Source: Opitutales bacterium (lineage in GTDB: Bacteria > Verrucomicrobiota > Verrucomicrobiia > Opitutales > UBA2987). Taken from it: a DNA stretch of 64,000 nucleotides. Of this stretch, positions 3,743 to 42,173 are shown one piece after another. The stretch covers positions 64,001 to 128,000 of the forward strand of contig CBDDEL010000011.1 in the NCBI GenBank assembly GCA_965226885.1, given 5' to 3'. The position numbers and the translations under genes were made by a program. The notes below the pieces were generated by a model that was not told where the DNA came from, made no database searches, and worked only from the letters and a program-made list of their open reading frames with translations. The stretch's first letter is position 1. Each line of letters begins with the position of its first letter.

Positions 3743-4980
3743 CCCGGATATTTCATGAAGGGTAAAGTTTGGCTCGTTATTGCTATTGGAGATGGAGATG
3801 GATTTCTTTGTATTTTGGGCGGATCGTCTTGATTTTGAGGTGTTTTTCAGGGTGTAGAGACACTTCCCCCTTTCCCCCATTGGTTCGGTAGCGCCGGGGG
3901 CAGCGCCAATGCGCCCTTTAGGTTGGCACCAACCGGCGGGCCGCATGGTTGAAAAGACTGGCCCATGGATAACTTTCACTTAGATGAAAGTGAATCGTTC
4001 GGGTGTTGCGCACGATGACCGCTCCGATCTTGATTAATTTTAGCCGTAGACTGTGGCATTGGAGCCGCGCCCACTTCGTCCCTTTTAATGCGAACCGGCG
4101 CAAGGCTTCCATCAAGGTGTAGGCCAGCCCCGACAAGAGCAATCGCCACTGGTTGGCCCACCATTTATGCGCGCTGGTGCGTTCGCTGAACAATTGCATC
4201 TGTTCCTTGATCCGGTTCTCCATCTCACCGCGGCCACAGTATACTTTGTCGTAAAGCTCTTGGGGATCGCCCTGCAGGTTCGTCACCACGAAGCGCGGGT
4301 TGGACCCCTGTGCGGTGTGTTCGGCTTTGTGGATGATAAGGCGTTGGCGCCGCCACGATTTTGCCCCATACTCGAAGTGCTGAAACAGCCGTTGCTTTCT
4401 GCCGCTACCCTCGAACCATTGTTTGGCTTGCTCCTGCAACTGCCGGGCCGCTTGCTGCAAGCGTGCATGGCGGGCCGTTCCCACTATAAAATAAACCTCG
4501 TTGCGCTCGCACCACGAGAGAATCCGATCCCGGCAGAATCCGCTGTCGGCACGCCAAATAATCCGCGTATGGGGCCAGCTTTGGCGAATCCGTTTAACCA
4601 GCAATTTGAGGATGGCCCCGGCATGCTTGCTCGCATCGATCTTGCTGGGCCGCAGGTAGGCCACCAGAAGCTGATCGCCGCAAAAAACATACAGCGGCAA
4701 AAAACAGTAATGATCATAATAACCGTGGAAAAAACGTCCCTCCTGGAGCCCGTGCACCGGATTGTCGGTGGCGTCAAAGTCCAGGATGATCTCTTCGGGT
4801 TCCTCGGCAAAGGATCCGATGAACTGTTCGACCAGCAACTCGTTCAGGGCAAAGGCTGCCCGCCGATCCTGCCCGTTTTCAAAACGACACAAAGTCGGCG
4901 CGCTGGCCAACGCTTCAGTGCGCCCCGTTACCGTTTGCAACAAAGGATCGCGGCGCAGGGTGTCAAAGTCGTTCAAATCC
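3743..4980 (-). mobile_element. IS1380-family element, diverged variant, 5' part replaced by IS21
   Basis: TIR CCCGGATATTTC; transposase 3918-4976 with DFDATD, RADSGF, RGEMENRIKE; many substitutions relative to the other copies. Confidence 0.92.
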
Positions 4981-5153
4981 TGTAAACGCCGGGATGAAAC
5001 CGGTACGGGGGTCGGGGTAAAACCGGTACGCTTGGAATAAGGTTTAGGTTAGTAATTGCAGGTACGTCAAGGTTTAGGGTTTGGGAGTTGGTTTTGGGGA
5101 TTGGCTTGGGGTCGGTGAGGAGGCCGGAGGCCGACGAGCCGGGCCCAAGGCGT

Positions 5154-5921
5154 TTATTGTTTTGGGCCACGGCGACGGCGTCGAGCATCGCGCAAGCGGT
5201 AGCTTTGCCCGTTGGCTTCGAGGATATGCACCCGATGGGTGAGTCGGTCCAGCAGAGCTCCGGTGAGCCGTTCGGAACCGAGCACTTCGATCCAGTTCTC
5301 AAAGGGCAGGTTGGTGGTGACGATGAGACTGGTGCGCTCGTAAGCGCGGCTGACCACGTCGAAGAGCAGTTCGGAACCGGTCTTGGAAAAAGGGACGTAA
5401 CCGAGTTCGTCGAGGATGAGTAGGTCGAGCCTTTCGAGTTGCTTCATGAAGCGCTGCAGGTCGTGGTTGTCGCGTTGCTCGAGCATATGGGTAACCAGGG
5501 CGGTGACCCCGAAGAAACGGATCCGCCGGCCCTGGGCACAGGCGGCAAAGCCCAGGGCGGTGGCCAGGTGCGTTTTACCGGTACCGGCGTTACCGAGGAG
5601 CAGCACGTTTTCGCGCTGGTCGACATACTCCCCGCGCATGAGCTCTCGGATGAGCGCTTCGTTGATCGAGGGCTGCGCTTCAAAGGCGAAGCTCTCGAGG
5701 GTCTTGAGCACGGGGAAACGGGCGTTTTTGATCCGCCGCTGGGCGGCCCGCTGTTCGCGTTCAATGAGCTCCCGTTCGACCAGATGCAACAAAAAGGCGG
5801 CGTAATCGAGCCGGTCCCGGGAACAAGCCGCGGCCACCGCCGGCCATTCGCGCAGGATGGTGGGCAACTTCAGTTTCTTGAGGTGATGGTGTAACAGCAG
5901 CTGGTTTTTTTCTTCCTTCAT
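5154..5921 (-). CDS. istB: IS21 helper AAA+ ATPase
   Basis: GNAGTGKTHLA Walker A, LILDELGY Walker B, LLDRLTHR. Confidence 0.95.
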   Translation of the reverse strand: MKEEKNQLLLHHHLKKLKLPTILREWPAVAAACSRDRLDYAAFLLHLVERELIEREQRAAQRRIKNARFPVLKTLESFAFEAQPSINEALIRELMRGEYVDQRENVLLLGNAGTGKTHLATALGFAACAQGRRIRFFGVTALVTHMLEQRDNHDLQRFMKQLERLDLLILDELGYVPFSKTGSELLFDVVSRAYERTSLIVTTNLPFENWIEVLGSERLTGALLDRLTHRVHILEANGQSYRLRDARRRRRGPKQ

Positions 5922-7557
5922 AAAGCCCCTCCTGGAATCTTGAGCAGTTCGCTGTAGGCACCGAGGTCAGGGGCGGCCACACGGACGTGACGCAGGTGTG
6001 GATGGCCGTCCAGCCGGAAGGTTCTGCTCCCGTAGTCTTCCTGAGGATAGAGATACTGGGCGATGGCCTCACGAGTCAGTCCCCCCACCCGCAGGGCCGA
6101 GACGACGGCCTGCTGCAAGGCCGCCATGGGGTGTTTCTCCAACAGCCGCAGCACCCGGATATACTCCCGGGTGCCTTCGCCCCCGCATTGGCTTTCGAGC
6201 CGGCGTCTGAGGACCTGCAGGCACTGCGGCAACTGCCAGCCCGAGAGTGGGCGGGCGAAGTCCAAAGCGCCCGGTTTTTTCTCCAGCAAAGCCAGGTAGT
6301 GCACCGGCTCGAAAGAGACTTGCTCTTTATCCCAAATGCGGCGGTGCCGGGCCACCTCTTGGCCCCCACAGAAGATCACCACCTGCCGACAGGACCCTTC
6401 CACCACCACCGGATGGTGGGCGCAGCGCACCGGCACCGAATAGTCGTTGCACTCGAAGCGCACCAGCGAGAGGCTGCTGACGCAGGTCGAGCGTTTGCGG
6501 CTCGCTTCAAAGGGTATGGGCGGCAACGCCAGCATGACGGCGCGCTCCTCGGCCAGCAGTTCCTTTTTCACCGCCCTTTTCCCGCGTAATTTACGCTCCA
6601 TGTCCCGCTCACATGCCTCCAACAGCTTTGCGTTGAGTTCCTCCAGGTCCCGAACCTGCGGTACCGGTACCAGGAAGTTGGCCCGGGCATAACGCACGAT
6701 CCCCTCGACCACGCCCTTCTCGTTGGGCCGGGCATAACGCACGATCCCCTCGACCACGCCCTTCTCGTTGGGCCGGGCATAACGCACGATCCCCTCGACC
6801 ACGCCCTTCTCGTTGGGCCGGGCATAACGCACGATCCCCTCGACCACGCCCTTCTCGTTGGGCCGGGCGGGCAGACAGAAGTGTTCCTCGAACAGGTAAT
6901 GGCTCTGTAGCTGCAGAAACCCGTCGGTCAGCTTGCGTTCACGCGAACCGATAATCTTACCCACCGCCACCTTCGAGTTGTCATAGCTGATGCGCCGGGG
7001 CACCGCCCCGAAAAACTCAAAAGCTCGCAGGTGCCCCTCCCAGAAGCTCTCCGTGCACTCCCGTTCGAACACCTGCACGAAAAAGGCATCGCTGTAGGGC
7101 AGGCTCATGGCAAAAAATGGCCGCCTACGCAATTGCCCCGCCTCCTTCACCAGGGCATGACCGAAGTCCACCTGTCCCTCCCCGGGGCGGTGCTCCAGCG
7201 GCACGAACACTTCCCGCCGCCTCGCTCGCAGCTCGGCCACCACCTCCTTGACCGCCGTGTAGCCCCCTTGGTAGCCCTTCTCCCGACCCAAACGCTGTAG
7301 ATCCGTTTGGCCGTATGGCGCTGCTTCTTGGGCACGTTCCGGTCCGCTTTGAGCACCTCCTCGATCTAGCCCACATACGGATCGATCTTGCGCTCTCGCC
7401 TCTTCTTGCGCCGGTATCCCGGCGGCTGGGAATAGGCCAGCATCTTTCCCAGGGTCTCCCAGTGCAGTCCCTCTTCTCGCATTACAGAGCGCTTGCTCTG
7501 CTTGTCCCGCAGCACTTTGTGCCGCACTCTTGTCCATTGCTTCATATCTCGATACAC
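5918..7557 (-). pseudogene. istA: IS21 transposase, inactivated
   Basis: GQVDFG, YDNSK, EKGVVE motifs; TGG->TAG at 7366-7368, 1-nt deletion near 7296 and 45-bp x4 expansion relative to copy 2. Confidence 0.9.
6682..6867. repeat. 45-bp tandem repeat x4 inside istA
   Basis: Unit encodes ARPNEKGVVEGIVRY; present once in istA copy 2. Confidence 0.95.
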
Positions 7558-7631
7558 TCCTCCTTTCTAGGATAAGCGTACCGGTTTTAAAGCGCCCTCT
7601 TTACCGTACCGGTTTTTCCCCGGCGTTTACA

Positions 7632-7786: not shown

Positions 7787-8875
7787 TACCTAGCAAAGGG
7801 AAAATCAGCAATAATTGTTAAATACTGCTGATTTGATCATCAAATAACGAAGGATAAGATTGCCAAATCACAATGAAAGCAAAAAATTGGGCCTAAAATA
7901 TTAGAAAGTAGCTATTTTCAACGATTATGAATGTTCATATGGGAATACTCGGTTTAAAACCTCAGGATACGCTCACACTCTCCTTCCTGTCATCCACAAT
8001 TTTCGGCTATATCTCGCGCCTTATTAGACGCCCATATATATGGACCAAAGCTACAGCAAAGGTAATTTTTGATTTTGTGTGCTCACAAACTCATTATAAC
8101 GACTATGCTTGAAGAAATGACATATCCATATTTGGTAATACCACGGCTCTACGACTTTTCCTGCGAAAAGATGGTAGGGATGTCCAAACTTGATGTCCTT
8201 GTGTGATCGATTAAACTCATTTATTGCTAATCTTTCTCCAGTGTAATCGTTTTGTAGCTCTGTCTCTGAACCGATAGTATCGTCAAAATAGCAGAACACT
8301 CAAGGTAAGTAGTTTCTTTCATCAGCCGCAAGCATATTCAACGCAGCGACCGTCGATGAATAGAAATCTAAATCATGCGCGATCGCTCCGATGGGGGCAG
8401 GATTATACTTCTCGAAAAAGTACTTTGATGTATCCTTGATGTCACCCAAAACGAGCTTTGCCTTTTTTAATCGTGCTTGGAGTGTTGGGACATCCATTTT
8501 GTAGAAGCCTTTTTTCCACTGATATGGGAGATCCCTATAATCTAAGGGTTCTGGGAGACCTTCTGCTATGTCAAAGCCGTAAATATCAATATCTATATCG
8601 AGCAATTTCGAAGTTTGTTGAGCGTGGTATTCGAGATTCACTAGTCCGTTTCCCCCCGCCACACCGAATTCCAAGACACTTATGCGCTGATATCCCAGTT
8701 TCTTTGCTAATACGGCAGCATAATAAACACAATAGCCATAGTGTGGACGGTCTACTGCTCCTACTCTTATTCTCTGTTCATAACTACCTAACCCGGATAT
8801 TTGTAAACGCCGGGGAAAAACCGGTACGGTAAAGAGGGCGCTTTAAAACCGGTACGCTTATCCTAGAAAGGAGGA

Positions 8876-10366
8876 GTGTATCGAGATATGAAGCAATGGA
8901 CAAGAGTGCGGCACAAAGTGCTGCGGGACAAGCAGAGCAAGCGCTCTGTAATGCGAGAAGAGGGACTGCACTGGGAGACCCTGGGAAAGATGCTGGCCTA
9001 TTCCCAGCCGCCGGGATACCGGCGCAAGAAGAGGCGAGAGCGCAAGATCGATCCGTATGTGGGCTGGATCGAGGAGGTGCTCAAAGCGGACCGGAACGTG
9101 CCCAAGAAGCAGCGCCATACGGCCAAACGGATCTACCAGCGTTTGGGTCGGGAGAAGGGCTACCAAGGGGGCTACACGGCGGTCAAGGAGGTGGTGGCCG
9201 AGCTGCGAGCGAGGCGGCGGGAAGTGTTCGTGCCGCTGGAGCACCGCCCCGGGGAGGGACAGGTGGACTTCGGTCATGCCCTGGTGAAGGAGGCGGCCAT
9301 TTTTTGCCATGAGCCTGCCCTACAGCGATGCCTTTTTCGTGCAGGTGTTCGAACGGGAGTGCACGGAGAGCTTCTGGGAGGGGCACCTGCGAGCTTTTGA
9401 GTTTTTCGGGGCGGTGCCCCGGCGCATCAGCTATGACAACTCGAAGGTGGCGGTGGGTAAGATTATCGGTTCGCGTGAACGCAAGCTGACCGACGGGTTT
9501 CTGCAGCTACAGAGCCATTACCTGTTCGAGGAACACTTCTGTCTGCCCGCCCGGCCCAACGAGAAGGGCGTGGTCGAGGGGATCGTGCGTTATGCCCGGG
9601 CCAACTTCCTGGTACCGGTACCGCAGGTTCGGGACCTGGAGGAACTCAACGCAAAGCTGTTGGAGGCATGTGAGCGGGACATGGAGCGTAAATTACGCGG
9701 GAAAAGGGCGGTGAAAAAGGAACTGCTGGCCGAGGAGCGCGCCGTCATGCTGCCGTTGCCGCCCATACCCTTTGAAGCGGAGCCGCAAACGCTCGACCTG
9801 CGTCAGCAGCCTCTCGCTGGTGCGCTTCGAGTGCAACGACTATTCGGTGCCGGTGCGCTGCGCCCACCATCCGGTGGTGGTGGAAGGGTCCTGTCGGCAG
9901 GTGGTGATCTTCTGTGGGGGCCAAGAGGTGGCCCCGGCACCGCCGCATTTGGGATAAAGAGCAAGTCTCTTTCGAGCCGGTGCACTACCTGGCTTTGCTG
10001 GAGAAAAAACCGGGCGCTTTGGACTTCGCCCGCCCACTCTCGGGCTGGCAGTTGCCGCAGTGCCTGCAGGTCCTCAGACGCCGGCTCGAAAGCCAATGCG
10101 GGGGCGAAGGCACCCGGGAGTATATCCGGGTGCTGCGGCTGTTGGAGAAACACCCCATGGCGGCCTTGCAGCAGGCCGTCGTCTCGGCCCTGCGGGTGGG
10201 GGGACTGACTCGTGAGGCCATCGCCCAGTATCTCTATCCTCAGGAAGACTACGGGAGCAGAACCTTCCGGCTGGACGGCCATCCACACCTGCGTCACGTC
10301 CGTGTGGCCGCCCCTGACCTCGGTGCCTACAGCGAACTGCTCAAGATTCCAGGAGGGGCTTTATGA
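8876..10366 (+). pseudogene. istA: IS21 transposase, frameshifted
   Basis: 17-bp deletion near 9293 between AGGCGG microhomologies; +1 insertions near 9779 and 9932. Confidence 0.9.
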
Positions 10367-11130
10367 AGGAAGAAAAAAACCAGCTGCTGTTACACCATCA
10401 CCTCAAGAAACTGAAGTTGCCCACCATCCTGCGCGAATGGCCGGCGGTGGCCGCGGCTTGTTCCCGGGACCGGCTCGATTACGCCGCCTTTTTGTTGCAT
10501 CTGGTCGAACGGGAGCTCATTGAACGCGAACAGCGGGCCGCCCAGCGGCGGATCAAAAACGCCCGTTTCCCCGTGCTCAAGACCCTCGAGAGCTTCGCCT
10601 TTGAAGCGCAGCCCTCGATCAACGAAGCGCTCATCCGAGAGCTCATGCGCGGGGAGTATGTCGACCAGCGCGAAAACGTGCTGCTCCTCGGTAACGCCGG
10701 TACCGGTAAAACGCACCTGGCCACCGCCCTGGGCTTTGCCGCCTGTGCCCAGGGCCGGCGGATCCGTTTCTTCGGGGTCACCGCCCTGGTTACCCATATG
10801 CTCGAGCAACGCGACAACCACGACCTGCAGCGCTTCATGAAGCAACTCGAAAGGCTCGACCTACTCATCCTCGACGAACTCGGTTACGTCCCTTTTTCCA
10901 AGACCGGTTCCGAACTGCTCTTCGACGTGGTCAGCCGCGCTTACGAGCGCACCAGTCTCATCGTCACCACCAACCTGCCCTTTGAGAACTGGATCGAAGT
11001 GCTCGGTTCCGAACGGCTCACCGGAGCTCTGCTGGACCGACTCACCCATCGGGTGCATATCCTCGAAGCCAACGGGCAAAGCTACCGCTTGCGCGATGCT
11101 CGACGCCGTCGCCGTGGCCCAAAACAATAA
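10363..11130 (+). CDS. istB: IS21 helper AAA+ ATPase
   Basis: Same protein sequence as 5154-5921. Confidence 0.95.
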   Translation: MKEEKNQLLLHHHLKKLKLPTILREWPAVAAACSRDRLDYAAFLLHLVERELIEREQRAAQRRIKNARFPVLKTLESFAFEAQPSINEALIRELMRGEYVDQRENVLLLGNAGTGKTHLATALGFAACAQGRRIRFFGVTALVTHMLEQRDNHDLQRFMKQLERLDLLILDELGYVPFSKTGSELLFDVVSRAYERTSLIVTTNLPFENWIEVLGSERLTGALLDRLTHRVHILEANGQSYRLRDARRRRRGPKQ

Positions 11131-11468
11131 ACGCCTTGGGCCCGGCTCGTCGGCCTCCGGCCTCCTCACCGACCCCAAGCCAATCCCCAAAACCAACTCC
11201 CAAACCCTAAACCTTGACGTACCTGCAATTACTAACCTAAACCTTATTCCAAGCGTACCGGTTTTACCCCGACCCCCGTACCGGTTTCATCCCGGCGTTT
11301 ACAGATATTTCATGAAGGGTAAAGTTTGGCTCGTTATTGCTATTGGAGATGGATTTCTTTGTATTTTGAGCAGATCGTCTTGATTTTTAGGTGTTTTTCA
11401 GGGTGTAGAGACACTGCCCCCTTTCCCCCATTGGTTCGGTAGTGCCGGGGGCAGCACCAATGCACCCT

Positions 11469-12779
11469 TTAGGTTGGCACCAATCGGCGGGCCGCATGGT
11501 TGAAAAGACTGGCCCAAGGATAACTCTCACTTAGGTGAAAGTGAATCGTTCGGGTGTTGCGCACGATGACCGCTCCGATCTTGATTAATTTGAGCCGCAG
11601 GGTGTGGCATTGGGCCCGCGCCCACTTCGTCCCTTTTAAGGCTAACCGGCGCATGGCTTCCATCAAGGTGTAGGCCAGCGCCGACAAGAGCAATCGCCAC
11701 TGATTGGCCCACCATTGATGGGCGCTGGTGCGCTCGCTGAACAATTGCATCTGTTCCTTGATTCGGTTCTCCATTTCACCGCGGCCACAGTATACCTTGT
11801 CGTAAAGCTCCTGGGGATCGCCCGGCAGGTTCGTCACCACGAAGCGCGGGTTGGACCCCTGTGCGGTGTGTTCGGCTTTATGGATGACCAACCGCAGCCA
11901 TCGCCACGAATCGGCAGCATAGACGAAGTCCTGGAATAACCGTTGTTTTTTACCCCTTAGTTCGAACCATTCTTTGGCCTGCTTTTGCAACTGCTGGGCG
12001 TCTTGCTGCAAGCGTGCATTGCGAGCCATCCCCACGATGTAACTAACTTCGTTGCGGTCGCACCAAGAGAGTATCCGGTCTCGACAAAATCCACTGTCGG
12101 CGCGCCAAATAATCCGCGTACGGGGCCAGCTTTGGCGAATCCGTTTAACCAGCAATTTGAGGATGGCTCCGGCATGCTTGCTGGCATCGATCTTGCTCGG
12201 CCGCAGGTAGGCCACCAGCAGCTGATCACCGCAAAAAACATATAGCGGCAGAAAACAATAATGATCATAATAACCGTGGAAAAAACGTCCCTCCTGGAGC
12301 CCGTGCACCGGATTGTCGGTGGCGTCAAAGTCCAGGATGATCTCTTCGGGTTCCTCGGCAAAGGAGCCCATGAACTGTTCGACCAACAGCTCGTTTACCG
12401 CAAAGGCCGCCCGCCGATCCTGCCCGTTTTCAAAACGACACAAAGTCGGCGCGCTGGCCAACGTTTCAATGCGCCCCGTTACCGTTTGCAACAATGGATC
12501 GTGGCGCAGGGTATCAAAGTCGTTCAAATCCTCATAGCCCGCCACCAGCCCGTAAACGCGCTGCCGCAGCATCCCCAATACCTCATGGCGTACTTTGCCC
12601 TTCTGCCGTTTGTCCACTAACTGTCGGGCCGCTCGTTCGGTCAAGCCCAACTGCCGATCCACTTCCCGGATCAAAAGCAGTCCGGCATCCGAAGTAACCT
12701 CTCCGCCCTTGAAATCAACCCGCACACGGCGGCCTTTTACCCTTGTCAACTGTAGCTTTAATTGTTTACCTTTTGTCAT
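11469..12779 (-). CDS. IS1380 DDE transposase
   Basis: TSDAGLLL, DFDATD, RADSGF, ENRIKE; likely start MTKGKQ. Confidence 0.92.
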   Translation of the reverse strand: MTKGKQLKLQLTRVKGRRVRVDFKGGEVTSDAGLLLIREVDRQLGLTERAARQLVDKRQKGKVRHEVLGMLRQRVYGLVAGYEDLNDFDTLRHDPLLQTVTGRIETLASAPTLCRFENGQDRRAAFAVNELLVEQFMGSFAEEPEEIILDFDATDNPVHGLQEGRFFHGYYDHYCFLPLYVFCGDQLLVAYLRPSKIDASKHAGAILKLLVKRIRQSWPRTRIIWRADSGFCRDRILSWCDRNEVSYIVGMARNARLQQDAQQLQKQAKEWFELRGKKQRLFQDFVYAADSWRWLRLVIHKAEHTAQGSNPRFVVTNLPGDPQELYDKVYCGRGEMENRIKEQMQLFSERTSAHQWWANQWRLLLSALAYTLMEAMRRLALKGTKWARAQCHTLRLKLIKIGAVIVRNTRTIHFHLSESYPWASLFNHAARRLVPT

Positions 12780-13085
12780 CGCTGATATTGCTTTAATTAT
12801 TGATCTATCCTGCTGTATATCAGCAGTTAAGCATATCAACGATACTTTTTTTACGAAATATCCGGGCTAAGCTGAATTTTTTGATGATCTTCTTTGCTAT
12901 AGTTCGTAACGGATACGGATCGAGGATTAGTTTTTGCAATTTCCTTATCATCAGTTTTCACCTCATATTATTAATGCCTGAAATTAGGGAGGCTAACATA
13001 TTGCAGGCAGTGTTTACGCAACCCTTAATTGGGTAAGATAAAAATTTGTCTGAGTTTGGCAAGTTAGTTTTTAATTGTCTGAAAA

Positions 13086-36876: not shown

Positions 36877-38443
36877 CCCGGATATTTCATGAAGGGTAAA
36901 GTTTGGCTCGTTATTGCTATTGGAGATGGATTTCTTTGTATTTTGAGCAGATCGTCTTGATTTTTAGGTGTTTTTCAGGGTGTAGAGACACTGCCCCCTT
37001 TCCCCCATTGGTTCGGTAGTGCCGGGGGCAGCACCAATGCACCCTTTAGGTTGGCACCAATCGGCGGGCCGCATGGTTGAAAAGACTGGCCCAAGGATAA
37101 CTCTCACTTAGGTGAAAGTGAATCGTTCGGGTGTTGCGCACGATGACCGCTCCGATCTTGATTAATTTGAGCCGCAGGGTGTGGCATTGGGCCCGCGCCC
37201 ACTTCGTCCCTTTTAAGGCTAACCGGCGCATGGCTTCCATCAAGGTGTAGGCCAGCGCCGACAAGAGCAATCGCCACTGATTGGCCCACCATTGATGGGC
37301 GCTGGTGCGCTCGCTGAACAATTGCATCTGTTCCTTGATTCGGTTCTCCATTTCACCGCGGCCACAGTATACCTTGTCGTAAAGCTCCTGGGGATCGCCC
37401 GGCAGGTTCGTCACCACGAAGCGCGGGTTGGACCCCTGTGCGGTGTGTTCGGCTTTATGGATGACCAACCGCAGCCATCGCCACGAATCGGCAGCATAGA
37501 CGAGGTCCTGGAATAACCGTTGTTTTTTACCCCTTAGTTCGAACCATTCTTTGGCCTGCTTTTGCAACTGCTGGGCGTCTTGCTGCAAGCGTGCATTGCG
37601 AGCCATCCCCACGATGTAACTAACTTCGTTGCGGTCGCACCAAGAGAGTATCCGGTCTCGACAAAATCCACTGTCGGCGCGCCAAATAATCCGCGTACGG
37701 GGCCAGCTTTGGCGAATCCGTTTAACCAGCAATTTGAGGATGGCCCCGGCATGCTTGCTGGCATCGATCTTGCTCGGCCGCAGGTAGGCCACCAGCAGCT
37801 GATCACCGCAAAAAACATATAGCGGCAGAAAACAGTAATGATCATAATAACCGTGGAAAAAACGTCCCTCCTGGAGCCCGTGCACCGGATTGTCGGTGCC
37901 GTCAAAGTCCAGGATGATCTCTTCGGGTTCCTCGGCAAAGGAGCCCATGAACTGTTCGACCAACAGCTCGTTTACCGCAAAGGCCGCCCGCCGATCCTGC
38001 CCGTTTTCAAAACGACACAAAGTCGGCGCGCTGGCCAACGTTTCAATGCGCCCCGTTACCGTTTGCAACAATGGATCGTGGCGCAGGGTATCAAAGTCGT
38101 TCAAATCCTCATAGCCCGCCACCAGCCCGTAAACGCGCTGCCGCAGCATCCCCAAGACCTCATGGCGTACTTTGCCCTTCTGCCGTTTGTCCACTAACTG
38201 TCGGGCCGCTCGTTCGGTCAAGCCCAACTGCCGATCCACTTCCCGGATCAAAAGCAGTCCGGCATCCGAAGTAACCTCTCCGCCCTTGAAATCAACCCGC
38301 ACACGGCGGCCTTTTACCCTTGTCAACTGTAGCTTTAATTGTTTACCTTTTGTCATCGCTGATATTGCTTTAATTATTGATCTATCCTGCTGTATATCAG
38401 CAGTTAAGCATATCAACGATACTTTTTTTACGAAATATCCGGG
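36877..38443 (-). mobile_element. IS1380-family element, intact (transposase 37046-38356)
   Basis: TIRs present; CTAA TSD. Confidence 0.95.
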
Positions 38444-38663
38444 CTAAGTTCGCGCAATGAATAACTGGCGACACCCAACTTTACCGGCCAGCTCTTTGAT
38501 TTACTTTCACCCGGCATCGGAGACCCGGATTCGGCCAAGCCAACATCAGGCAATAAAGAAGCCGCCGATACAGCGCCAGCAACCTTCAAAAATTCTCGTC
38601 GAGATTTGTTTTCCATTCGCTTTACTTCATTATCCAACACTACCAGGACACCACAATCCTTAA

Positions 38664-40468: not shown

Positions 40469-42035
40469 CCCAGATATTTCATGAAGGGTAAAGTTTGGCT
40501 CGTTATTGCTATTGGAGATGGATTTCTTTGTATTTTGAGCAGATCGTCTTGATTTTTAGGTGTTTTTCAGGGTGTAGAGACACTGCCCCCTTTCCCCCAT
40601 TGGTTCGGTAGTGCCGGGGGCAGCACCAATGCACCCTTTAGGTTGGCACCAATCGGCGGGCCGCATGGTTGAAAAGACTGGCCCAAGGATAACTCTCACT
40701 TAGGTGAAAGTGAATCGTTCGGGTGTTGCGCACGATGACCGCTCCGATCTTGATTAATTTGAGCCGCAGGGTGTGGCATTGGGCCCGCGCCCACTTCGTC
40801 CCTTTTAAGGCTAACCGGCGCATGGCTTCCATCAAGGTGTAGGCCAGCGCCGACAAGAGCAATCGCCACTGATTGGCCCACCATTGATGGGCGCTGGTGC
40901 GCTCGCTGAACAATTGCATCTGTTCCTTGATTCGGTTCTCCATTTCACCGCGGCCACAGTATACCTTGTCGTAAAGCTCCTGGGGATCGCCCGGCAGGTT
41001 CGTCACCACGAAGCGCGGGTTGGACCCCTGTGCGGTGTGTTCGGCTTTATGGATGACCAACCGCAGCCATCGCCACGAATCGGCAGCATAGACGAAGTCC
41101 TGGAATAACCGTTGTTTTTTACCCCTTAGTTCGAACCATTCTTTGGCCTGCTTTTGCAACTGCTGGGCGTCTTGCTGCAAGCGTGCATTGCGAGCCATCC
41201 CCACGATGTAACTAACTTCGTTGCGGTCGCACCAAGAGAGTATCCGGTCTCGACAAAATCCACTGTCGGCGCGCCAAATAATCCGCTTACGGGGCCAGCT
41301 TTGGCGAATCCGTTTAACCAGCAATTTGAGGATGGCCCCGGCATGCTTGCTGGCATCGATCTTGCTCGGCCGCAGGTAGGCCACCAGCAGCTGATCACCG
41401 CAAAAAACATATAGCGGCAGAAAACAGTAATGATCATAATAACCGTGGAAAAAACGTCCCTCCTGGAGCCCGTGCACCGGATTGTCGGTGGCGTCAAAGT
41501 CCAGGATGATCTCTTCGGGTTCCTCGGCAAAGGAGCCCATGAACTGTTCGACCAACAGCTCGTTTACCGCAAAGGCCGCCCGCCGATCCTGCCCGTTTTC
41601 AAAACGACACAAAGTCGGCGCGCTGGCCAACGTTTCAATGCGCCCCGTTACCGTTTGCAACAATGGATCGTGGCGCAGGGTATCAAAGTCGTTCAAATCC
41701 TCATAGCCCGCCACCAGCCCGTAAACGCGCTGCCGCAGCATCCCCAATACCTCATGGCGTACTTTGCCCTTCTGCCGTTTGTCCACTAACTGTCGGGCCG
41801 CTCGTTCGGTCAAGCCCAACTGCCGATCCACTTCCCGGATCAAAAGCAGTCCGGCATCCGAAGTAACCTCTCCGCCCTTGAAATCAACCCGCACACGGCG
41901 GCCTTTTACCCTTGTCAACTGTAGCTTTAATTGTTTACCTTTTGTCATCGCTGATATTGCTTTAATTATTGATCTATCCTGCTGTATATCAGCAGTTAAG
42001 CATATCAACGATACTTTTTTTACGAAATATCCGGG
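40469..42035 (-). mobile_element. IS1380-family element, intact (transposase 40638-41948)
   Basis: TIRs (one mismatch); TTAG TSD. Confidence 0.95.
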
Positions 42036-42173
42036 TTAGAGGAATCAAAAACGGGTCGGGTTTATCTTTTTAAAATTGTAATGGTGCTTATTTTGGTGGG
42101 GTTTGATCGGTGGTTGTGGCTGTGTTTGGATTTGGGTTGTCGGTGGTTAGGGGGTTGGCTCCTTGGATGGTTT

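Follow-up and report, generated by a model that had tools for sequence, protein, structure and literature searches.

Insertion sequences of the IS1380 family are common in environmental bacteria and one of them, ISEcp1, is clinically important; to our knowledge, the mechanism and regulation of the family are poorly known. One such element in an Opitutales genome raises the question whether the non-coding sequence behind its transposase gene carries a conserved structure, on which strand this structure folds and what it may do for the element. All positions given below refer to the window, i.e. the whole stretch of 64,000 nucleotides that was analysed. An initial annotation of the window had proposed a conserved structured element right after the stop codon of an IS1380-type transposase, and this proposal withstood comparison with homologues: as judged from aligned sequences, the feature is the local copy of a deeply conserved motif of ~80 nt in the 3' untranslated region of the transposase gene, here termed the type 1 IS1380 3' motif. 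As far as our searches reach, the motif has not been described before, and full-text literature searches listed no paper on an RNA or conserved structure in the ends of the family.

The IS1380-type element and its copies

The transposase matches PF13701 with an E value of 2.8e-165 and is of the DDE_Tnp_1_4 type. One DDE domain spans residues 33-453, and there is no extra domain. Homologues encoded on plasmids carry IS1380-family annotation, and the protein of the type element, IS1380A, is 43.8% identical to that from the window. Following ISfinder, we take members of the family to be ~1.6-1.7 kb long, to contain one ORF and to have short inverted repeats at their termini as well as a short duplication of the target. 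The element studied here agrees with this picture in that it has a size of ~1.57 kb, ends in TARCCCGGATATTTC...GAAATATCCGGGYTA and is flanked on both sides by a 4-bp YTAR. A PDB sequence search with the transposase returned no homologue of solved structure, a scan of viral contigs for the transposase found nothing and megablast of the IS against plasmids gave no match. The parts of the element and its copies in the window are as follows:

11469..12839, minus strand: IS1380-family DDE transposase ORF, 456 aa as listed, stop codon TAA at 11469-11471
12840..12871, minus strand: left end with inverted repeat (TAG)CCCGGATATTTC
11304-12871: IS copy A, without its last 5 nt, cut by an IS21-like element
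40471-42038: IS copy B
36881-38448: IS copy C
3747-4981: IS copy D

Three of the four copies are nearly identical and the fourth, copy D, is truncated at its 5' end and 91% identical. The whole genome (5.48 Mb) contains 221 near-full copies and 313 tails, 217 of which are identical to that of the window while about 30 represent a minor subfamily with seven substitutions. A second subfamily of the element with ~91% identity is also present in the genome. Multiplying 1.57 kb by 221 copies yields an estimate of about 6% of the genome, and whatever the motif does is compatible with such runaway activity of the element.

Two inverted copies of an IS21-like element, whose family was guessed from ORF sizes, are located at 4980-7600 and about 8800-11303. 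Their ORFs encode proteins of 539 aa (5918-7537) and 255 aa (5154-5921), with a second 255-aa ORF at 10363-11130. One of them interrupts IS copy A at a point 5 nt short of the right end, and the other directly adjoins the truncated copy D. Positions 4980-5183 and 11101-11304 form an exact inverted repeat of 204 nt.

The sequence behind the stop codon in the window

On the minus strand, the TAA codon is followed by AGGGTG CATTGG TGCTG CCCC CGGCA CTACCGAA CCAATG GGGG AAA GGGGG CAGTGTCTCTA CACCCT, exactly as quoted in the initial annotation, and every one of the nested stems drawn there can be drawn in the window copy. The description of the diverged copy (3839-3920) is likewise accurate: a T>C and an A>G substitution replace one T-A pair in the inner hairpin by C-G, and two further substitutions are uncompensated (T>C in AGGGTG and C>A behind the second G run). 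The non-coding tail, counted from the stop codon up to the end of the IS, comprises the reported 165 nt in copy A, in which the last 5 nt are missing, and 169-175 nt in the remaining copies. When the 74 nt in question are folded by themselves, they reach -33.5 kcal/mol with z = -2.35, and 3 of 200 shuffled sequences fold equally well, so that the signal is modest. Moreover, their minimum-energy fold departs from the one proposed and pairs GGUGCUGCCCCC with GGGGGCAGUGUC. Folding of a single sequence therefore decides nothing in this case, and real support has to come from comparison.

A conserved motif in the tails of transposase homologues

Relatives of the transposase were collected from genomes (78 loci; 80 of 372 passing tblastn), from metagenomes (80 loci; 80 of 553 passing tblastn) and from 16 of 401 Verrucomicrobiota genomes, including the one that contains the window. 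This collection provided 177 tails behind transposase stop codons, 112 of which are distinct in their first 100 nt. About half of the tails share a block that we name type 1 and that consists of a hairpin (P1), a linker, two G tracts, a box and an A-rich box. A covariance model, R1, was built from 17 sequences aligned with MAFFT, the 5-bp stem being the sole structure given, and found 56 matches (53 distinct) in 100 sources. All of them are on the strand of the transposase, either immediately after a stop codon or within the tail of a neighbouring copy. An nhmmer profile of the box run against all tails was too insensitive for so short a motif. At copy A, the model match spans 11390-11470, and the motif is laid out in the window as follows:

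11453..11457, minus strand: 5' arm of P1, GUGCU; columns 14-18 of the alignment, pairing with the 3' arm 98.8%
11447..11452, minus strand: P1 loop GCCCCC, the conserved (G)YCCCC loop
11442..11446, minus strand: 3' arm of P1, GGCAC; pair types across homologues are given below
11430..11441, minus strand: A-rich linker UACCGAACCAAU; consensus ..GAUAAACAAY
11417..11429, minus strand: two G tracts, GGGGG-AAA-GGGGG; consensus GGGGG-WAA-GGGGG
11408..11416, minus strand: box CAGUGUCUC; consensus R-G-Y-N-UG-Y-C-Y
11390..11401, minus strand: CUGAAAAACACC, the A-rich box that ends the conserved block; common to L041, L259, L273 and type 2 tails
11304..11389, minus strand: distal tail up to the right inverted repeat; its sequence is unconserved between relatives, its length is kept
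36967..37047, minus strand: motif in IS copy C, 75.2 bits
40559..40639, minus strand: motif in IS copy B, 75.2 bits
3839..3919, minus strand: motif in the diverged minor-subfamily copy D, P1 GCGCU/GGCGC, 76.3 bits

The C-rich loop, the A-rich linker (11-13 nt), the G tracts and the GYGCC/A-rich box are the near-invariant parts of type 1. Throughout the 53 distinct sequences the C run hardly varies; changes within it are exclusively C to U (L264, L275, L119), and a shorter loop run, GGCCC, is present in L033, L038 and L280. One clade (L260, L262, L287, L322 and half of L291) has GGCGG in both tracts and keeps a UCCCC loop. In 48 of 50 sequences an NTG triplet follows the second tract at a distance of 1-5 nt (GTG 19, CTG 17, ATG 6, TTG 6). 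In 46 of 47 elements, 8-13 nt separate the stop codon from P1, and all three stop codons are used. The exception is L119 with P1 52 nt from the stop, and the spacing is therefore not obligatory.

Three metagenome loci, L266, L279 and L281, feature an expanded motif, in which P1 (GCGCC/GGCGC) encloses ~37 nt including an extra covarying hairpin (CGGAG/CUCCG, GCUCGG/CUGAGC or GGCCG/CGGCC) with the loop (A/U)CCAA(AA)C; a C-rich segment is kept at the 5' side. Many copies within the Opitutales genome have tandem duplications of 6-20 nt in their tails (tccatc, acgagc, aatagc and others), nearly all of them in the distal half and few in the motif.

Covariation in P1 and the folded strand

The 5-bp stem of P1 is 98.8% paired in the 53 distinct tails, the transposases of which are 34-90% identical to that of the window. 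The first pair is GC in 41 sequences, GU in five and AU in one, the second UA in 32, CG in 14 and AU in four, and the fourth CG in 46 and GC in four; the closing pair is UG in 48 and UA in one. Three of the five pairs are compensatory, with 23 cells changed on both sides. Neither the pairing nor the covariation score was reached by any of 500 shuffles, and when the partner strand was slid by 1-3 columns, pairing dropped to 24-59% with almost no double changes. Since the 53-sequence alignment had been fitted to the model, the MAFFT-only seed was counted separately; here, P1 is 100% paired and the second pair is UA in 14 sequences and CG in three. The stem variants comprise GUGCU/GGCAC, GCGCU/GGCGC, GAGCU/GGCUC, AUGCU/GGCAU, GGCGG/CCGCC, GCGG/CCGC and GCGCC/GGCGC. 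Double changes occur in at least seven separate lineages of the transposase tree, and the minor subfamily of the window repeats the change from UA to CG. The inner hairpin of the initial annotation is consequently real and conserved, as it covaries across the 53 distinct homologues.

Cells of P1 that are not Watson-Crick pairs are G.U on the coding strand (UG 48, GU 5 and GU 1), apart from three cells, one of which is C.A. This asymmetry points to a folded sense strand, most likely RNA; between RNA and single-stranded DNA, both of which had been suggested before, it favours folding with sense polarity. Three traits, namely a stem whose sequence may vary provided that pairing is preserved, a loop that is asymmetric and fixed, and G.U pairs confined to one strand, together argue for a folded single strand of sense polarity and not for a palindromic duplex operator. 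The same observations bear on the possibility that the motif is a DNA-level subterminal platform, either double-stranded or transiently single-stranded, in which the inverted repeat, the G tracts and the GYGCC/AAAATC box would bind the transposase or a host architectural protein, mark the right end and help to build the transposition complex. We regard this reading as unlikely: stem sequence varies freely with pairing kept while the loop is fixed, and mismatches that are almost all one-strand G.U are left unexplained by a duplex site.

Beyond P1, RNAalifold predicted only a weak helix, GGG/GCC, in which no compensatory changes occur. Another hairpin, CGUUG...CAACG within the A-rich linker, was considered and dropped, since by eye it fits some sequences and fails in many. 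Small hairpins after the box, obtained by folding the sequences singly, have no common place.

Outer stems and a candidate pseudoknot

The two outer stems of the fold originally proposed did not survive comparison. AGGGUG/CACCCU and CAUUGG/CCAAUG, the columns of which flank P1 and were aligned by sequence only, are paired in 31.4% and 27.9% of the cells in the 53 sequences versus 30.4% in shuffles. Both are lost in L253, the closest relative, whose transposase is 89% identical to that of the window: AAGACA and AATTG(C) take the place of the two 5' strands, and their 3' partners have changed little or not at all. With pairing at chance level and this loss in the closest relative, the outer stems are therefore features of this one copy.

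The pseudoknot between the C-rich loop and a downstream G run, also part of the initial proposal, fared differently. The complementarity is widespread, the C run matching the first tract in 93.4% and the second in 77.4% of the cells, but there is no covariation. The observed pairing was reached by 88 of 500 shuffles for the first tract and by 277 of 500 for the second, and slid controls score equally because both partners hardly vary. The geometry is that of a textbook H-type pseudoknot with a stem 1 of 5 bp, a gap of 1-2 nt between it and the C run, and 11-13 nt of A-rich linker leading up to the tract. Stem 1, i.e. P1, is supported, and stem 2 is a plausible candidate. A few hints point in its direction. 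The restriction of changes inside the C run to C to U (see above) is one of them. In L334 the loop is UGGCC and GGCCC occupies the place of the first tract (GGCC/GGCC), L033 and L280 combine the loop GGCCC with GGGC in the second tract (GCCC/GGGC), and the window and L253 extend the match by one G-C pair. Against the pseudoknot stands the clade with GGCGG tracts, which retains its UCCCC loop.

Distribution and other types of tail

Judged from the titles of their records, hosts of type 1 tails include SAR324, Myxococcota, Planctomycetota, Paracoccaceae, several gammaproteobacterial families and Verrucomicrobiota, and the motif is kept with transposases that are only 34-37% identical to that of the window (L115, L117, L124). 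In a FastTree phylogeny of 106 transposases, midpoint-rooted and unreliable for long branches, type 1 occurs throughout, also on the deep branch of L115 and L117, and types 2 and 3 form clades nested within it; the rows L036, L258, L293 and L319, labelled 'oth', are type 1 duplicates. Type 2 tails have a hairpin ~30 nt after the stop codon, CGCGU-UGAAACAG-ACGYG, that differs from P1. It is 92.3% paired, three of its five pairs are changed on both sides, many cells are G.U, and none of 500 shuffles reached this pairing. The hairpin is directly followed by GA-GGN and CUAUGCCUG. RNAalifold found just this hairpin when type 2 tails were searched for long-range pairing, and nothing consistent emerged by eye. 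In type 3 tails, GCUCGCC is followed by AAAAUC. At the level of sequence and predicted folding, the tail types have a common theme: a hairpin, a purine-rich run, a YGCC box and an A-rich box.

R1 had no significant match in ISEcp1, IS1380A, ISAzs3, ISSp1, IS1247 and IS1678 or in elements from Acidovorax, Stutzerimonas and Bradyrhizobium (best E 0.35), and the motif is therefore not universal in the IS1380 family. By eye, the Acidovorax tail (L334) is an expanded variant of the motif despite the missing R1 match, and the tail of IS1678 contains a hairpin followed by GGGAGAAGUAUGCUCAAAAU. The tail of ISEcp1 is AT-rich and without such a block; ISAzs3, ISSp1 and the Bradyrhizobium element feature some hairpin soon after the stop codon. 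On an Enterococcus faecium plasmid, a near-threshold Rfam match to the Enterococcus sRNA Ref64 (L339:391-457, minus strand; 41.4 bits with a gathering threshold of 44.3) adjoins the left end of IS1678 on its outside.

This distribution is of relevance for the idea that the motif provides an RNA partner of the DDE transposase, i.e. a folded 3' untranslated region or a piece processed from it that the transposase binds and needs for activity, cis preference or choice of ends, which would make the enzyme a ribonucleoprotein. Single-stranded parts are conserved more deeply than the protein, given that transposases of 34-37% identity keep GGGGG-UAA-GGGGG and the C loop; the many phyla among the hosts call for a partner that is element-encoded or universal; and P1 begins just beyond what we take to be the footprint of the terminating ribosome. 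On the other hand, there is no variable guide-like loop matching targets, the flanks having YTAR in common and nothing else, the transposase consists of one DDE domain without any addition, and related family members do without the motif. We give this idea a small chance. In its most specific form, nascent transposase would capture the pseudoknotted 3' end of its own message and the resulting complex would render the enzyme active, or active only in cis, which we likewise consider quite improbable. If true, this RNA subunit would be the first known case of an RNA component in a classical DDE insertion sequence.

Possible transcription and reading of the tail

In four metatranscriptome runs of one study, contigs join the tail to the end of the ORF without a break, and one in X1 (11304-11755) starts at the IS end, spans the motif and reaches into the ORF; such contigs from RNA libraries show presence only, not ends, strand or level, with carry-over of DNA being possible. 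Breaks of contigs near the stop codon coincide with a branch point made by self-insertions of the element, and nothing was read into them. No antisense promoter for the tail was found. One sigma-70-like site at 11298-11325 on the plus strand (TTTACA, 16 nt, TAAAGT) faces inwards at the right end of the IS, in antisense orientation relative to the tail; this is a single consensus match, with agreement at 9 of 12 positions.

Neither a known RNA family nor a simple terminator, the two trivial outcomes considered at the outset, accounts for the motif. Positions 11200-11600 searched against Rfam 15 gave best E values of 0.39 and 3.6, far below gathering thresholds, and no Rfam 15 match falls within the tail in ten related loci. 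There are no terminator-like sites in 11250-11550, and P1 is followed by an A-rich stretch and not by a U tract. Many genes end with a GC-rich hairpin, and some hairpin soon after the stop codon is also seen in distant IS1380 members (ISAzs3, ISSp1, Bradyrhizobium), so P1 might be taken as an ordinary protective or terminating 3' hairpin, whose neighbouring sequence is conserved by recent common descent only. Apart from the missing U tract and terminator-like site, this view is at odds with how little the loop, the linker, the G tracts and the box vary where transposases share 34-60% identity and the remaining tail is unalignable, and we consider it the least probable of the readings discussed here.

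The motif could also resemble a ribosome binding site, in which an A-rich leader, Shine-Dalgarno-like tracts and NUG recruit or retain the 30S subunit for re-initiation or for protection of the mRNA end. We take UAAGGGGG to be complementary to the 3' end of 16S rRNA with one G.U allowed. The fit of this segment, the NTG found after the second tract in nearly all sequences, with its first base free, and the arrangement GAGGG, 6 nt, ATG read by eye in most type 2 tails would go along with such a role. Reading frames that start from the conserved NTG comprise 2-78 codons and share no peptide, so the motif is not protein-coding. In addition, initiation sites would call for more than the spacing of 2-4 nt seen behind the second tract, CTCG replaces NTG in type 3 tails and GGCGG tracts are a poor match to the 16S end. 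Altogether, a ribosomal look-alike is more doubtful still than an RNA partner of the transposase.

Target sites, tail length and the DNA level

The target of the element is a 4-bp YTAR without preference in the flanks; among 332 left flanks we counted CTAG 107, TTAG 97, CTAA 94 and TTAA 15. Targeting, which the initial annotation had named as one possible role, thus finds no backing: 332 left and 322 right flanks of the copies in this genome show YTAR and nothing motif-like, and no guide-type segment matching target or flank appears in the logos of these flanks. Thirteen YTAR sites lie inside the IS, two of which take most self-insertions, one at IS position ~824 (roughly 30 events) and the other being the CTAA at the transposase stop codon (22 starts, 11 ends).

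The distance from stop codon to IS end amounts to 163-184 nt in type 1 (30 elements with a right end recognised by pattern), to 217-235 nt in type 2 with one exception of 193 nt and to 211-241 nt, mostly 221-225 nt, in type 3, one false pattern match apart. Length is therefore kept within each type though the distal sequence is unalignable.

Several of these traits would suit the subterminal DNA platform introduced above. The motif is present at one end of the element only, the total length of the tail is constrained, and the two G tracts are direct repeats that have changed together to GGCGG in one clade, like co-evolving half-sites. The distal tail contains A tracts with a weak phasing of 10-11 nt, a signal that is noisy. 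The box is marginally more similar to its own right inverted repeat (5.61) than to those of other elements (5.30), as reached in 43 of 2000 permutations, and one of the two self-insertion hot spots adjoins the motif. However, base composition could account for the weak likeness between box and inverted repeat, nothing like the motif is located near the hot spot at IS position ~824, and the left end begins only about 30 nt before the ORF with nothing similar there. Together with the free stem and the one-strand G.U pairs, these points leave the DNA platform as an unlikely reading.

A possible function in cis

Our best guess at the function of the motif is cis control of transposase expression or transposase binding. 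More specifically, we assign a probability of about one half to control in cis of transposase output, exerted through stability of the 3' end, through events at or after termination or through co-translational capture of the transposase. The motif would act as folded sense-strand RNA inside the transposase transcript. P1 would present the C-rich loop, which possibly pairs with a G tract; the A-rich linker would then be the third loop of an H-type pseudoknot. As the hosts span many phyla, the invariant single-stranded parts would be read by an equally conserved partner, either the element's own transposase or the ribosome, and the effect would be control in cis of the yield of transposase from its own mRNA.

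Known systems resemble this arrangement in part. Signals for read-through of retroviral stop codons are H-type pseudoknots a few nt downstream of the recoding site. The motif is similar in that its hairpin follows the stop codon at 8-13 nt, the loop is complementary to a run further downstream and the putative third loop is A-rich, but it lacks a conserved extension frame, is combined with all three stop codons and its stem 2 is without covariation. RNA-OUT of IS10 and the hairpin in the 5' untranslated region of IS200 are structured RNAs that limit transposase production, as the motif may do, but they act at the 5' end or start codon, whereas the motif is located 3' of the stop codon and no antisense promoter was detected. 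The omega RNA of IS200/IS605 TnpB (PMC10055086) is a further case for comparison. It starts near the 3' end of an ORF and runs towards the right end of its element. The motif likewise extends from the 3' end of the ORF towards the right end. The omega RNA serves a separate RNA-guided nuclease and has its guide beyond the element end, while no such protein and no Rfam match to those families are present here. The bridge RNA or seekRNA of IS110 and IS1111 (PMC11208160, PMC11187229) is a structured non-coding RNA in the non-coding end of the IS. The motif shares with it the position of a structured RNA candidate in a non-coding IS end beside the transposase gene and its discovery by covariation. 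IS110 and IS1111, however, encode a DEDD recombinase and their RNA has loops complementary to target and donor, while here a DDE transposase is combined with variable stems and YTAR as the sole target. Comparative surveys have reported orphan structured RNA motifs of unknown function linked to transposase genes (PMC5737381); the type 1 motif is similar to them in that a conserved structure is tied to a transposase gene, and is set apart by the absence of an Rfam 15 match.

That a non-coding element is kept in at least six phyla, and to a greater depth than the transposase itself, indicates an overlooked function. The motif offers an 80-nt handle on how IS1380 elements control or carry out transposition and on whether a DDE transposase uses RNA, and it is a candidate for a new RNA family entry, as R1 finds it cleanly.

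Solo tails, tandem tails and IS dimers

The pattern CCCCN{14,22}GGGGGWAAGGGGG hit 115 stretches on viral contigs, none of the 80 fetched had a transposase by tblastn and the hits were all put down to chance. Among derivatives with internal deletions (MITE-like) that keep the tail, none had multiplied.

At several loci of the Opitutales genome, full IS copies are followed by one or two extra tails of 169 nt at a spacing of 173 nt (G000:C10:267437-267999, C11:13278-13667, C11:343002-343255, C13:299990-300243, C14:154930-155183 and C14:423539-423792). Solo tails of this kind do not represent a separately mobile unit; insertion of the IS into the CTAA stop of another copy explains them. The flanks show insertion into the stop-codon CTAA directly, and recombination appears to have followed. 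Head-to-tail IS dimers with a single YTAR between right and left ends also occur, and both the extra tails and the dimers probably originate from nested insertion plus recombination.
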